NCBI GenBank assembly: GCA_036381515.1
Contig: DASVCR010000054.1
Location: 6,811 to 70,810 of the forward strand
DNA from: Gammaproteobacteria bacterium
Lineage (GTDB): Bacteria; Pseudomonadota; Gammaproteobacteria; Steroidobacterales; Rariloculaceae
DNA: 64,000 nt
Direction: 5' to 3'
In this document: one piece after another, positions 5,502 to 13,476 of the stretch
Numbering within the stretch: position 1 is the stretch's first letter
Layout: each line of letters begins with the position of its first letter
The notes under the pieces: generated by a model
What the model saw: only the letters and a program-made list of their open reading frames with translations
The model's database searches: none
Told to the model about the DNA's origin: nothing
Translations under genes and position numbers: made by a program

Positions 5502-6182
5502 ATGAATCTGCTCGCGCTCGAAACCTCGAGTCCCGTCGGCTCGATCGCGCTGCTCTGCGGCGACGACGTGCTCGAGCGCTTCATCGAGACGCCGCGCGAG
5601 CAGACCGACCTCGTGCTGCCGTTCGTCGACGACGTGCTCGACGCGGCGGGACTCGCGCTGCGCGACCTCGACGCGGTCGCGTTCGGTCGCGGTCCCGGCT
5701 CGTTCACGGGCCTGCGGATTGCCGCGGCCGTCACGCAGGGCCTCGCGTTCGCGTCGGGCGTGCCGGTCGTCGCGGTTTCGAGCCTGGAGGCGCTCGCGCA
5801 GCGCGCGTGGCGCGAGCTCGGCGTCGACGACGCGCTCGTCTGCGTCGATGCGCGGATGCGGGAAGTCTATGCCGCGCGCTACGTCGTCCGGCGGGGCCGC
5901 GCGGCGCTCCGCGGCGAGGAGCGGCTGTGTCCGCCCGAGGCGCTGGTCGCGCCGGGCGGCGTCGACGGCGACGGCTGGACGGCCGTCGGCAGCGGCTTTG
6001 CGGCGTACGCGGATGTGCTCGCGCCGCTCGCCGGCCGTGCGGCGCGCGTCGTGCCGGACCTCGTGCCGGCCGCTCGTGACCTCCTCGTCGCCGCGGCGGA
6101 CGACGTCGCGGCCGGGCGGTTCCTCGCGCCCGAGGCGGCGTTGCCGGTGTATCTGCGCGACGAGAACGCCTGGCGCCGCTAG
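5502..6182 (+). CDS. tsaB: tRNA threonylcarbamoyladenosine biosynthesis protein TsaB
   Basis: LALETSS, GRGPGSFTGLRI, DARMREVY, PVYLR. Confidence 0.96.
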   Translation: MNLLALETSSPVGSIALLCGDDVLERFIETPREQTDLVLPFVDDVLDAAGLALRDLDAVAFGRGPGSFTGLRIAAAVTQGLAFASGVPVVAVSSLEALAQRAWRELGVDDALVCVDARMREVYAARYVVRRGRAALRGEERLCPPEALVAPGGVDGDGWTAVGSGFAAYADVLAPLAGRAARVVPDLVPAARDLLVAAADDVAAGRFLAPEAALPVYLRDENAWRR

Positions 6183-6187
6183 CCCGG

Positions 6188-6237
6188 AAAATGTGTCAGA
6201 CACCTTTTTCGGCCGAAAAAGGTGTCTGACACATTTT
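6188..6237. repeat. REP-like palindromic doublet (type A, copy 2), perfect 50-bp palindrome
   Basis: AAAATGTGTCAGACACCTTTTTCGG|CCGAAAAAGGTGTCTGACACATTTT. Confidence 0.95.
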
Positions 6238-6340
6238 TCCGGCGGAATTGGGGTCAGAGCCCATTTCTCTGCGAAATCGGGGTCAGAGCCCATTTCCTGA
6301 CCGGGAAGAGGCTCGGAGGACGAGCGGCCCCTGACCCAAC

Positions 6341-6422
6341 TTGGCTAACCCCCAGCTTCAGGACGCCTTGGCTAACCCCCAACTTTAGGAAGCCTTCAGT
6401 AACCCCCAACTTCAGGAAGGCC
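6341..6422. repeat. 27-bp tandem repeat x3
   Basis: TTGGCTAACCCCCAGCTTCAGGACGCC / TTGGCTAACCCCCAACTTTAGGAAGCC / TTCAGTAACCCCCAACTTCAGGAAGGCC. Confidence 0.9.
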
Positions 6423-6712
6423 TTTTCTCGGAGATTCCGTCAGCGGAAATGGGCGCAGAGGAATCTGGGGTCAGAGCTTTCGTTCGTGCGGAAAGTGGGA
6501 AACTGAGGGCAGAGCCCGCTCTCGGAAGTTGGGGCAGAGATGGGTCAGCGCCCCTTTTCCACGGACGGAGTCTCTCGACGCAGTTTCAAGTTTTCTCTGA
6601 GCTAATTCCCAAAGGGCTCTGCCCCGATTTCCGCATGCTGGCCCTAATTGCCATGCGGCAACCGGCTCTGGCCGGATTCTCCCGGGAAAGAGCCGCCCCC
6701 AATGTCTCCGCC

Positions 6713-6818
6713 TGGCTCTGACCCGAGTTTCGTCTGGAAAAGGGCTCTGACCCGAGTTTCGTCTGGAAATGGGCTCTGACCCGAGTTTCGTCTGGAAAAG
6801 GGCTCTGACCCCAATTTC
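6713..6818. repeat. 29-bp tandem repeat, about 3.6 copies
   Basis: GGGCTCTGACCCGAGTTTCGTCTGGAAAW units starting 6713, 6742, 6771, 6800. Confidence 0.95.
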
Positions 6819-6820
6819 GG

Positions 6821-6854
6821 CGTTCACCCCTCTGTAACATTGTGAAGCTGTAAT
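6821..6854 (+). promoter_or_regulatory. Putative Pho box plus -10 for phoBRU
   Basis: CGTTCAC-CCCT-CTGTAAC (7-4-7, cf. CTGTCAT consensus) followed exactly 10 bp later by TGTAAT. Confidence 0.55.
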
Positions 6855-6886
6855 GACCGGCGCCGGTTGAGCCGAGCGATCCCGCC

Positions 6887-7579
6887 ATGACGGAAAAGAA
6901 GGTTTTGGTCGTCGAGGACGAAGAGCCGATCCGCGATCTGCTGCGTTTCAGGCTTGCGCGCGCCGGCTACGCCGTCGTGCCGGCGGCGACGGGTGCCGAG
7001 GCGCGGGCCGCGATCGCCGACACGCGTCCCGACGTCATCCTGATGGACTGGATGTTGCCGGACGTCAGCGGCCTCGAGCTCACGAGAGAGCTGAAGCGTG
7101 ACCCCGCGACGCGCGAGATTCCCGTGATCATGCTGACCGCCCGCGCGCAGGAGGACGACCGCGTCGCGGGGCTCGAGGGCGGCGCGGACGACTACGTCGT
7201 GAAGCCGTTCTCGCCGCGCGAGCTCCTCGCGCGGATCAAGGCGGTGATGCGGCGCGGCACGGTCGAGGACGACGAGCTGCTGACCGCGGGCCGCCTCGTG
7301 CTCGACCCGGCGAGTCACCGCGTGATGGTCGACGGGGAGGAGGTCGCGCTCGCGCCGACCGAGTTCAGGCTGCTCAAGTTCTTCATGGAGCATCCCGACC
7401 GCGTCTACAGCCGCGCGCAGGTCCTCGATCGCGTGTGGGGCGGCAACGTCTATGTCGAGGAGCGCACGGTCGACGTGCACATTCGGCGACTGCGTCAAGC
7501 CTTGACCCCTTTCGGATACGATAGACTCATTCGCACCGTCCGAGGGGCCGGCTACGGGTTTTCGCCGGATCGAGCGTGA
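6887..7579 (+). CDS. phoB: Phosphate regulon response regulator PhoB
   Basis: VVEDE, LMDWMLP, GADDYVVKPFSPREL, VWGGNVYVEERTVDVHIRRLR. Confidence 0.97.
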   Translation: MTEKKVLVVEDEEPIRDLLRFRLARAGYAVVPAATGAEARAAIADTRPDVILMDWMLPDVSGLELTRELKRDPATREIPVIMLTARAQEDDRVAGLEGGADDYVVKPFSPRELLARIKAVMRRGTVEDDELLTAGRLVLDPASHRVMVDGEEVALAPTEFRLLKFFMEHPDRVYSRAQVLDRVWGGNVYVEERTVDVHIRRLRQALTPFGYDRLIRTVRGAGYGFSPDRA

Positions 7580-10291: not shown

Positions 10292-10984
10292 TCAGCTCGT
10301 CCGCCGCGGCGGCCGCCCCCTTTTCCTCTTCACGAGCGGCCGCTGCACGGCGGTTTCCAGGCTCTGCCTGAACGCGTCATCGCCAGTCGGTACGCTATCG
10401 TTCAGGCCTTCCCGGATCCTCTGCACCGTTTCCTCCGGCAGCCTTTCGCAAATCAGCTCGCGATACCGGGCGGCCCTTTCGAACGGTGTCGGCCCGAGTA
10501 ACAGAAAGGTCGGGTGCGGAGCGATCAGGGAGGACGGGGCGCCCGTGGAGTTGACGCGGCAGCTGCTCCACGGATACGCATCTGGGCGCCGGACGATCCC
10601 GGCCCGGACCGGGTTCAGCTCGATATAGCGATAGCACGCGAGACAGTAATAGTCGGCATCGATGGGTGAGGCATGGAAACGGCTCTCCCACAACGATCCG
10701 GTACGCGCGTAGCGCGCGTTGAAGTGGGCGGAATAGCGGCCGGAGACGTACTGCAGGAGGCGCGAGACGCCGTCGGGAAGCCGCGACGTCAGAAGCAGGT
10801 GCACGTGATTCGTCATCAAGACGTAGGCATGGACGCTGGTCTCAAAACGACGTGCGCCTGTGCGAAGGAGGGACAGATAGTCCACGAAGTCGCGCCGGTC
10901 CAGAAACGTCGCATCCCGGTTGTGCCCGCGTTGGACGACGTGGAACGTCAAGCCTGACAGACGAATCCGGTGTGCTCGGCCCAT
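10292..10984 (-). CDS. HUH Y1 transposase (REP-associated tyrosine transposase-like)
   Basis: FHVVQRGHNR, HAYVLMTNHVHLL (HUH), LWESRF, RYIELNPVRAG (catalytic Tyr), YPWSS, C-terminal KRGRP; start taken at MGRAHR. Confidence 0.92.
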   Translation of the reverse strand: MGRAHRIRLSGLTFHVVQRGHNRDATFLDRRDFVDYLSLLRTGARRFETSVHAYVLMTNHVHLLLTSRLPDGVSRLLQYVSGRYSAHFNARYARTGSLWESRFHASPIDADYYCLACYRYIELNPVRAGIVRRPDAYPWSSCRVNSTGAPSSLIAPHPTFLLLGPTPFERAARYRELICERLPEETVQRIREGLNDSVPTGDDAFRQSLETAVQRPLVKRKRGRPPRRTS

Positions 10985-12250: not shown

Positions 12251-12355
12251 GCCGGCCCCTCCATGATTTTCCGCGCGAAGGATCGAGCACAACCCATTGA
12301 TCTTACGAGGCCCTCATGCCGTCCGCCCGCGTCGACCGGCGGCCACGGCGCCGGC

Positions 12356-12389
12356 CTGCAACAATTCCGTAACATTCGTCGACTACCTT
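12356..12389 (+). promoter_or_regulatory. Putative Pho box plus -10 for pstSCAB
   Basis: CTGCAAC-AATT-CCGTAAC (7-4-7) followed exactly 10 bp later by TACCTT. Confidence 0.65.
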
Positions 12390-12399
12390 TCGGCCCGTC

Positions 12400-13476
12400 A
12401 TGCGAGCCGACGACTTCCCGTCAGCGCCCGTCGTCCGTGCCGTCGCGGCGCTCCTGCTCGCGCTCGCGACCGCCTCGCCGGCGGCGGCGCAAATCGCCCG
12501 CGACTATATCAACATCGTCGGCTCGTCGACGGTTTATCCCTTCGCGACCGTCGTCGCCGAGCGCTTCGGGCGCGCGACCCGCTTCAAGACGCCGAAGGTC
12601 GAGGCGACCGGCAGCGGCGGCGGCATCAAGCTGTTCTGCAACGGCCTCGGCGTGCGCCACCCGGACATCGTGAACTCCTCGCGGCGCATCAAGCGGAGCG
12701 AGATCGAGAGCTGCGCCCGGAACGGCGTCCGCGAGGTCGTCGAGTTCGTCGTCGGCTACGACGGCATCGTCCTCGCGTCGTCTCGAGATGCGAACCCTAT
12801 CTCTCTGACGCTGCAGCAAGTCTACCTCGCCCTCGCGAAGCACGTCCCGGATCCGTCGGGCGCCCCGCGGCTCGTCCCGAATCCGTATCGCCGGTGGTCC
12901 GACCTCGATCCGAAGCTTCCGGGCGCCGAGATCGAGGTGCTCGGGCCCCCGCCGACCTCCGGCACGCGCGACGCGTTCCTCGAGCTCGCGATGGAAGGCG
13001 GGTGCGGCACGTTCGAGCTGATCCGGTCGCTCGGCGACGACGAGCGCCTCGTCGCGTGCCACACGCTCCGCGAGGACGGCGCGTATGTCGAGGCCGGCGA
13101 GAACGACAACCTGATCGTGCAGAAGCTGAACGCGAACCCGAACGCGCTCGGCATCTTCGGCTACAGCTTCCTCGATCAGAACGGCGACCGTGTCCGCGCC
13201 GTCGCGATCGACGGCGTCGAGCCGACCTTCGAGACGATCGCCGATTCCAGGTATCCGATCTCGCGGCCGCTGTACTTCTACGTGAAGAAGGCGCACGTCG
13301 GCGTGATCCCGGGCATCGAGGGGTACCTCCGCGAGTTCATGAGCGAGGCCGCGGCGGGCGACTACGGTTATCTCTCCGATCTCGGGCTCGTGCCGCTTCG
13401 CGAGAACGAGCGCCGGGAGATGGTCGAGCGGATCGAATCGCTCGAGTCCCTGCAGCTCGCGAACGTCACACGATGA
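12400..13476 (+). CDS. pstS: Phosphate ABC transporter substrate-binding protein
   Basis: Signal peptide, VGSSTVYPF, TGSGGG, GPPPTSGTRDAF, YPISRPLYFY. Confidence 0.95.
   Translation: MRADDFPSAPVVRAVAALLLALATASPAAAQIARDYINIVGSSTVYPFATVVAERFGRATRFKTPKVEATGSGGGIKLFCNGLGVRHPDIVNSSRRIKRSEIESCARNGVREVVEFVVGYDGIVLASSRDANPISLTLQQVYLALAKHVPDPSGAPRLVPNPYRRWSDLDPKLPGAEIEVLGPPPTSGTRDAFLELAMEGGCGTFELIRSLGDDERLVACHTLREDGAYVEAGENDNLIVQKLNANPNALGIFGYSFLDQNGDRVRAVAIDGVEPTFETIADSRYPISRPLYFYVKKAHVGVIPGIEGYLREFMSEAAAGDYGYLSDLGLVPLRENERREMVERIESLESLQLANVTR

Follow-up and report, generated by a model that had tools for sequence, protein, structure and literature searches.

The spread of REP-type repeats is still debated, and the literature compared here in part treats the second-largest enzyme class as repeat-less, without assays. 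In passages of Quentin et al. (PMC6006769), subclass 2.1 of the TnpA-REP proteins is entered with the REP status "no"; similarly, group 1 is described in part of a later text as not associated with REPINs (10.1101/2021.07.10.451892), and Bertels and Rainey, in the account used here, confine REPINs to groups 2 and 3. The closest described systems are the TIRtrons, the TnpA-REP proteins of subclass 2.1, the REPINs of Pseudomonas, and the BIMEs of Escherichia coli; passages of two further papers were also drawn on (PMC5581495 and PMC8266576).

The locus described here lies between tsaB and phoB in the window, the whole 64,000-nucleotide stretch of DNA that was analyzed. Its central element, 574 bp long (6245-6818), is non-coding and made up of arrayed copies of a palindromic repeat, B, whose unit is a 25-bp imperfect palindrome with the core GGGGTCAGAGCCC. 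We are almost certain that it is a TIR/REP array. The genome contains about sixty arrays like it, built from an abundant repeat family, and this one does not stand out among them. The features are as follows.

5502..6182, + strand: tsaB (TIGR03725, above cut-off), its stop codon separated from the first repeat by 3 bp
6186..6239, no strand: inverted doublet of family A, core GTGTCAGACAC; two copies at 29-bp spacing (40.8 and 43.5 bits) forming a 31-bp inverted repeat, outside the B array
6244..6268, + strand: leftmost B copy, core intact (33.5 bits)
6273..6297, + strand: second B copy from the left, core intact (35.0 bits)
6326..6338, - strand: weak, decayed B-like core running against the array polarity (10 of 13 matches, only 5.7 bits)
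6340..6424, + strand: local tandem of a 27-bp unit, 3.1 copies (86% matches)
6461..6485, 6499..6523, and 6535..6559, + strand: inner left arm, three decayed B copies (20.4, 18.4, and 17.3 bits)
6560..6607, no strand: array center with the orientation switch, unique sequence; + copies end at 6559 and - copies begin at 6608
6608..6632, 6657..6681, and 6707..6731, - strand: inner right arm, three decayed B copies (18.6, 11.4, and 11.4 bits)
6714..6819, - strand: 29-bp tandem, 3.7 copies, with three strong copies (6736..6760, 6765..6789, and 6794..6818)
6821..6838, + strand: Pho-box-like 7-4-7 site, ancestral and outside the repeat, with the same geometry in 10 of 13 relatives without a B array
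6849..6854, + strand: -10-like hexamer TGTAAT, 10 bp past the box; TGTAAT/TCTAAT-like at equal spacing in those 10 relatives
6887..7579, + strand: phoB, first gene of phoB-phoR-phoU (TIGR02154, above cut-off; PhoR and PhoU domains found)
10292..10984, - strand: Y1 (HUH) gene amid family A doublets (PF01797), 58% identical to the B-flanked Y1 of contig C17
Contig C17, 21741..22463, outside the window: B-flanked Y1 gene, sister of the window Y1

The original prediction described a gene-less element whose ends are nearly reverse complements of each other, and both end strings were indeed located, at 6245-6267 and 6795-6818. The ends had also been described as reiterated twice on the left and four times on the right; this holds on the left, where two intact B copies lie 29 bp apart (cores 6250-6262 and 6279-6291), but on the right the 29-bp unit (94% matches) amounts to 3.7 copies, three strong and one partial, rather than a full four. 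The outermost copy of the right tandem equals the consensus, and the inner copies have a private variant in common. Six of the seven decayed inner copies that had been proposed were recovered, centered at 6332, 6473, 6511, 6547, 6620, and 6669, with 9 to 11 of 13 core bases matched; no distinct copy was found at 6536. On a genome-trained matrix, for which shuffled DNA gives one or two matches per Mb at 16 to 18 bits, the centers at 6473, 6511, 6547, and 6620 score 17 to 20 bits, and those at 6332 and 6669 are weak (5.7 and 11.4 bits). Orientation changes once along the element, between 6559 and 6608, the weak match at 6332 excepted. The core, with at most one mismatch allowed, has five matches in the 64-kb window, every one within the element, versus 0.09 expected by chance, and none of 100 shuffles had as many. 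The 27-bp tandem at 6340-6424 had been missed, and the family A doublet (6186-6239), which directly adjoins the element on its left, had not been named with it.

The absence of a credible open reading frame was borne out, as the four overlapping frames of 90 to 118 aa have no Pfam match (0/4), and a genome-trained codon model called none of them. The G+C content of the element is 58%, versus 75% in tsaB, and the predicted fold of its whole strand is much stronger than that of shuffled versions (z = -8.4). An Rfam scan of 6000-7000 returned four matches, all generic hairpins far below their gathering scores. The interior matches nothing elsewhere in the genome beyond the repeat copies, and a search of the element found neither a Y1 remnant nor captured gene pieces.

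That the array is an assembly artefact of collapsed repeats is close to inconceivable. No contig on its own spans the full 29-bp tandem, whose exact number of units therefore rests on the assembly; however, contigs of seven of eight public sequencing runs, from six studies, cover 6198-6743 wholly or partly with zero differences (one of these runs may be the source of the assembly, and run X12 is the one without interior coverage), and the link to the promoter is carried by further contigs, over 6749-6951 and 6782-7054. Since contigs from six studies carry the element, it is not a mis-assembled repeat.

A second Y1-associated repeat family, as had been predicted, exists: 370 exact B cores lie on 65 of the 118 contigs, which contradicts the possibility that no other copies of this type occur. 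On the matrix, at a threshold of at least 14 bits, there are 697 B and 384 A copies, versus about 4 per Mb in shuffled DNA, and the repeat clusters take up 1.0% of the assembly. The two families have a common scaffold, composed of an A-run, a GTCAGA center, and a T-run, and differ by one compensatory stem pair and one mismatch. Clusters containing B number 169 of 324, free copies are found singly, as dimers, and in clusters, and 10 of the 254 strong clusters that were placed lie inside called genes. The two families meet more often than expected, with A and B in one intergenic space in 43 cases versus 6.9 expected and, of 25 cases, 16 with A blocks beyond the B span (6.9 expected). Simple doublets of both families show two spacings, 27 to 31 and 57 to 64 bp; their arms carry private variants in common, and in B doublets of 28 bp the linker is often palindromic and semi-conserved.

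At least four B copies are present in 68 arrays, 61 of which contain both orientations. These arrays are polarized: 58 of the 61 start with a copy pointing right (>) and end with a copy pointing left (<), none shows the reverse order, and 45 of the 61 contain a single orientation switch, versus a mean of 4.2 in shuffles. They also decay inward, with perfect cores in 85% of outermost copies (n = 116) and then in 47%, 36%, 23%, and 29% at successive ranks (rho = -0.45). Selection for terminators as the cause of this gradient was ruled out, because array ends near gene starts and near stops are equally intact (87% perfect outermost cores, n = 38, and 88%, n = 64, respectively). The outermost copies may stay intact because fresh ones are imported at the edges or because the interior turns over faster. 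The flanks of neighboring copies are alike at 0.37 to 0.42, versus 0.27 to 0.29 (150 pairs). End-to-end homogenization of long arrays was considered and rejected, as in 49 of them the outer ends resemble each other hardly more than random pairs do, in contrast to simple doublets.

The genome has two Y1 genes, and the proposed search for a second one flanked by B led to the gene on C17, which lies among B copies. The flanks and the copy numbers suggest that each enzyme is paired with the repeat that surrounds it. The B consensus contains GGGGTCAG, which matches GGGGWSAS. A survey of distant homologous loci (80, five of which were dropped for short flanks) left 75 with both flanks, and these include 41 with an inverted GGGGWSAS pair and 11 with an exact B core; an inverted 11-mer of any kind is present at 54 of them, versus 3 in the control. 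Both Y1 proteins carry the signatures of subclass 2.1, namely, HUH, the catalytic Tyr, NHVH, W[EQ], YIELNP, SS, and a length of about 238 aa; the window protein matches exactly, and the C17 protein has one change (YIEQNP). PF01797 was found in all 36 aligned members. The best structural match of the predicted Y1 fold is 4er8, the E. coli TnpA-REP (E = 6e-8), and the model contains three confident C-terminal helices at residues 167 to 213 that were matched to no named domain, with a Pfam HTH in 0 of the 36 members. Both proteins score 72 against NF047646, whose cut-off is 80, and a tree of Y1 proteins from 14 relatives, built without reference subclass proteins, resolves little (2 of 11 inner branches starred). 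By motif, flank arrangement, and protein signatures, the repeat and the protein appear to fit the TIR/TIRYT class.

The window Y1 gene (10292-10984) lies next to dapE, and four relatives (L024, L026, L028, and L031) have it in synteny. The repeat that flanks it is A in the source genome (G000) and in G008, B in both G003 and G009, and a third variant in G002; these differing flanks of a syntenic gene indicate that repeat specificity changed at one locus.

The genomes of the genus are kin and partly incomplete (the source genome is 89.5% complete), and within these limits exact B cores number 143 to 297 in three other genomes with a B-flanked Y1, 8 in two with other flank motifs, and 1 to 5 in three where no Y1 was found. 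An exception is G005, which has 103 exact B cores, yet the sole Y1 found there is flanked by a one-base variant. Polarity extends to relatives: among the first 100 matches listed for each genome, 26 of 26 two-orientation clusters in G005 and 16 of 17 in G007 follow it. One long polarized B array is present in G008 (L144, C8:235200-236300), with truncated copies outside its right end; the only Y1 found in this genome is flanked by A, and the array is perhaps a relic of a B enzyme that was lost or is unassembled.

Two origins had been offered for the element, an accumulating array, which fits it, and a non-autonomous derivative. The latter, in the sense of a deleted or transposed unit, is at odds with our data, and it is very improbable that a MITE-like element or deleted TIRtron arrived as one 574-bp unit with the outer repeats as its transposase ends. 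The outer copies are inverted and intact, in keeping with such an arrival, and elsewhere a 125-bp A-B-B-A composite occurs at two loci (C81:59976-60098 and C106:29740-29864) with a 97% identical spacer, which indicates that a short mixed unit can move whole; moreover, at 89.5% completeness, a sister copy of the element could be missing from the genome. However, the element has a unique interior and no Y1 remnant, the outer ends of the 49 long arrays are scarcely alike, and target-site duplications of 3 to 6 bp show no excess among 145 clusters, where 4-bp repeats occur at 10 versus 7.4 by chance; the 4-bp direct repeat that flanks the element itself is likewise at chance level. The unique interior without a transposase remnant therefore argues that the array grew in place and is not a transposed derivative.

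Growth in place by nicking, extension, and rejoining through the C17 Y1 is the account we favor and, judging from sequence comparisons, a fairly probable one. The array would have grown from one inverted pair, with the B-flanked Y1 nuclease bound to the hairpin of an intact repeat, on a single strand, and making a nick just 5' of it. From the free 3' end a host polymerase would then synthesize DNA, whose end would be rejoined to the old strand still bound by the enzyme, so that a whole or truncated unit is added on the 5' side. The same joining step might occasionally import repeats or pieces of DNA from other loci, and recombination between neighboring cores could amplify units further, as in the 29-bp tract of 3.7 copies. 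Nicking, extension of the 3'-OH, and strand transfer are the steps of the published model of BIME amplification, as given in the relevant passages of Ton-Hoang et al. (PMC3333891).

Truncated tandem duplicates, which end 4 to 9 bases into the core, were found among 420 cores, 31 times on the 5' side and 7 times on the 3' side of intact ones (one duplicate pair is probably a single locus at overlapping contig ends). This 31:7 strand bias, although a hairpin is possible on both strands, speaks against an alternative in which Y1 only seeds the inverted pair and the arms grow by host slippage or hairpin-break repair. We consider that alternative doubtful but deserving of attention: the element contains exact local tandems of 27 and 29 bp, which need no transposase, duplications are equally frequent at inner and outer copies, and the strong strand fold implies hairpins that could stall forks. 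Replication slippage usually needs microhomology. Across the 25 distinct perfect cases, the mean microhomology at the junction is 0.88 base (random joins, 0.92 base), which falls short of that need; such a random level is what strand joining, unlike slippage, would be expected to give. The relatives G003 and G009, which share the B core and have a Y1 of a different branch, also speak against growth by the host alone, since 200 kb sampled from each contained only doublets and singlets (15 clusters, none with three copies); the motif alone thus does not make arrays.

Growth in place through Y1 does not specify where along an arm the units are added, and three tests gave no sign of outward growth. 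Recent duplications were found at 11 of 117 inner and 9 of 109 outermost intact copies, and the identity of neighbors is no higher at the ends (0.54 versus 0.54 to 0.58). The variant that flanks Y1 in G005 is outermost in 9 of 18 mixed arms of that genome, versus 10.2 expected, in 62 regions chosen around listed G-variant copies, which cover part of its 266 matches.

Pieces of distant coding sequence were observed within two B arrays. That at C96:554-636 (L141) holds an 84-bp piece of C34:111989-112072 (95%), joined directly into a core, and that at C64:8719-8806 holds an 88-bp piece of the distant C68:5347-5434 (94%). A systematic, CRISPR-like capture of spacers was rejected, as 6 of 293 linkers match elsewhere (E of at most 1e-4), versus 0 in two controls, and just two of the six are distant gene pieces. 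We speculate, with considerable reserve, that Y1 enzymes of subclass 2.1 might be active array builders that nick at GGGGWSAS hairpins and append DNA without homology, mainly at outer edges. If so, each array would be a growing record of repeats, sister-family repeats, and 80- to 90-bp pieces of distant genes.

The B-type repeats also harbor a multi-copy insertion sequence with a DUF4372 N-terminus, which we take to belong to the IS4 family. It lies in or beside such repeats at all eight contig ends found (C2:48162, C17:33795, C27:115304, C44:31687 [L139], C66:4822 [L143], the start of C74, C81:66995, and C98:12365 [L140]), and seven of the eight are at the identical point of the B core, which points to a target duplication of about 9 bp. 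A decayed end (80%) of this same insertion sequence was seen within a B array at C11:25053-25180. According to a passage of PMC1525189, ISRm22, a member of the IS4 family, targets REPs.

In Pho promoters, the box and the -10 element are spaced by 10 bp. As predicted, the array has its right end at 6818 and a 7-4-7 site begins at 6821, with TGTAAT 10 bp after the box; by this geometry, 6821-6854 is a putative Pho promoter of phoB, the Pho box being defined in part of PMC4415409 as a 7-4-7 direct repeat. Pho-box-like half-sites were also noted at 12345-12378, upstream of a pstS-like gene at 12400. Of 20 relatives examined, seven gave no usable tsaB-phoB pair; the gap between these genes is free of B in all of the remaining 13 and measures 56 to 204 bp, versus 704 bp here, which bears out the expectation of an empty site. 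The box, the 10-bp spacer, and the -10-like hexamer are present in 10 of the 13, and in eight of these 10 the tsaB stop is only -6 to 29 bp from the box. Because the gap in relatives is so short, an insertion that spares both the tsaB stop and the box must end near the box, and the 2 bp between array and box therefore reflect a constraint of space. An independent A doublet is present in the same gap in G008, marking it as a repeatedly used landing place.

The original prediction also held that the element is placed so that it could insulate or modulate phoBRU transcription. That the array was selected to insulate or modulate, by keeping tsaB read-through away from the phoBRU promoter, is, in our estimation, highly unlikely, although it fills the space between co-directional genes up to 2 bp before the box, folds strongly, is invariant across the sequencing runs compared, and has the G008 doublet as an independent counterpart. 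B is absent from this gap in every one of the 13 relatives, including the eight with almost no room between stop and box; the array lies 68 bp from the phoB start codon, a typical distance (genome median, 64 bp; n = 189, own gene calls); 15 of the 68 arrays are as long or longer (575 bp or more); and a promoter and terminator scan of 6100-6950 scored no terminator-like site and no promoter. The proposed regulatory role of its placement is thus unsupported, with a promoter that predates the array and an ordinary distance to the start codon. Since relatives without the array have the promoter, the array is probably a tolerated passenger, which likely filled the one place between the tsaB stop and a preexisting Pho promoter where an insertion could be tolerated, and where its hairpins may passively damp read-through from tsaB.

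The locus itself is ordinary, and the repeat system is of modest importance. It nevertheless offers two sister enzymes and two sister repeats, which differ by a compensatory change in the stem and are present in hundreds of copies, and its junctions predict the location of the nick; binding, cleavage, and growth are therefore directly testable with oligonucleotides. Among the papers listed in literature searches, titles and abstract openings contained no description of polarized arrays (figures and supplements on TIRs may hold the motif and copy numbers), and among the papers listed for the exact core motif none concerned bacterial repeats.

Among known systems, the array resembles the TIRtrons, or TIRYT, in passages of Di Nocera et al. 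(2013; PMC3733652), in the GGGGWSAS repeat, in inverted copies around Y1, in one repeat family per Y1 gene, and in the occurrence of singles, dimers, and clusters. TIRs are moderately abundant there, whereas here about 700 B and 380 A copies occupy 1% of the genome, and the passages of that paper used here describe no single-switch polarity, decay gradient, or junction structure. The proteins resemble TnpA-REP subclass 2.1, or Bertels group 1, in the parts of Quentin et al. (2018; PMC6006769) that give its signatures (NHVH, WE, YIE[L/Q]NP, and SS), its length of 230 to 240 aa, and its single-copy genes; unlike in published subclass 2.1, a large hairpin-repeat family accompanies each Y1. As in Pseudomonas REPINs, on the description in passages of Bertels and Rainey (2011; PMC3116915), the inverted pairs are extragenic, with a spacer that varies between conserved ends and with favored spacings (here 27 to 31 and 57 to 64 bp), but there is no GTAG tag, the 5' flank being an A-run, and the enzyme is of another RAYT group; REPIN clusters, in the same passages, are tandems of whole REPINs, whereas the arms here are head-to-tail runs with one switch. 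Like E. coli BIME-2 in the sections of PMC3333891 used here, the array is proposed to have grown by local tandem addition through nicking, extension, and strand transfer, but BIMEs alternate in orientation with uniform units at a locus, whereas our arrays have one switch (45 of 61) and heterogeneous units. Unlike a MITE, the element has a unique interior, and target-site duplications are not in excess (145 clusters). Possibly new, then, are the abundance and polarity of arrays that accompany an enzyme group published as lacking REPs, as well as the strand-biased duplication junctions without microhomology and the capture of 84- to 88-bp gene pieces in two arrays.
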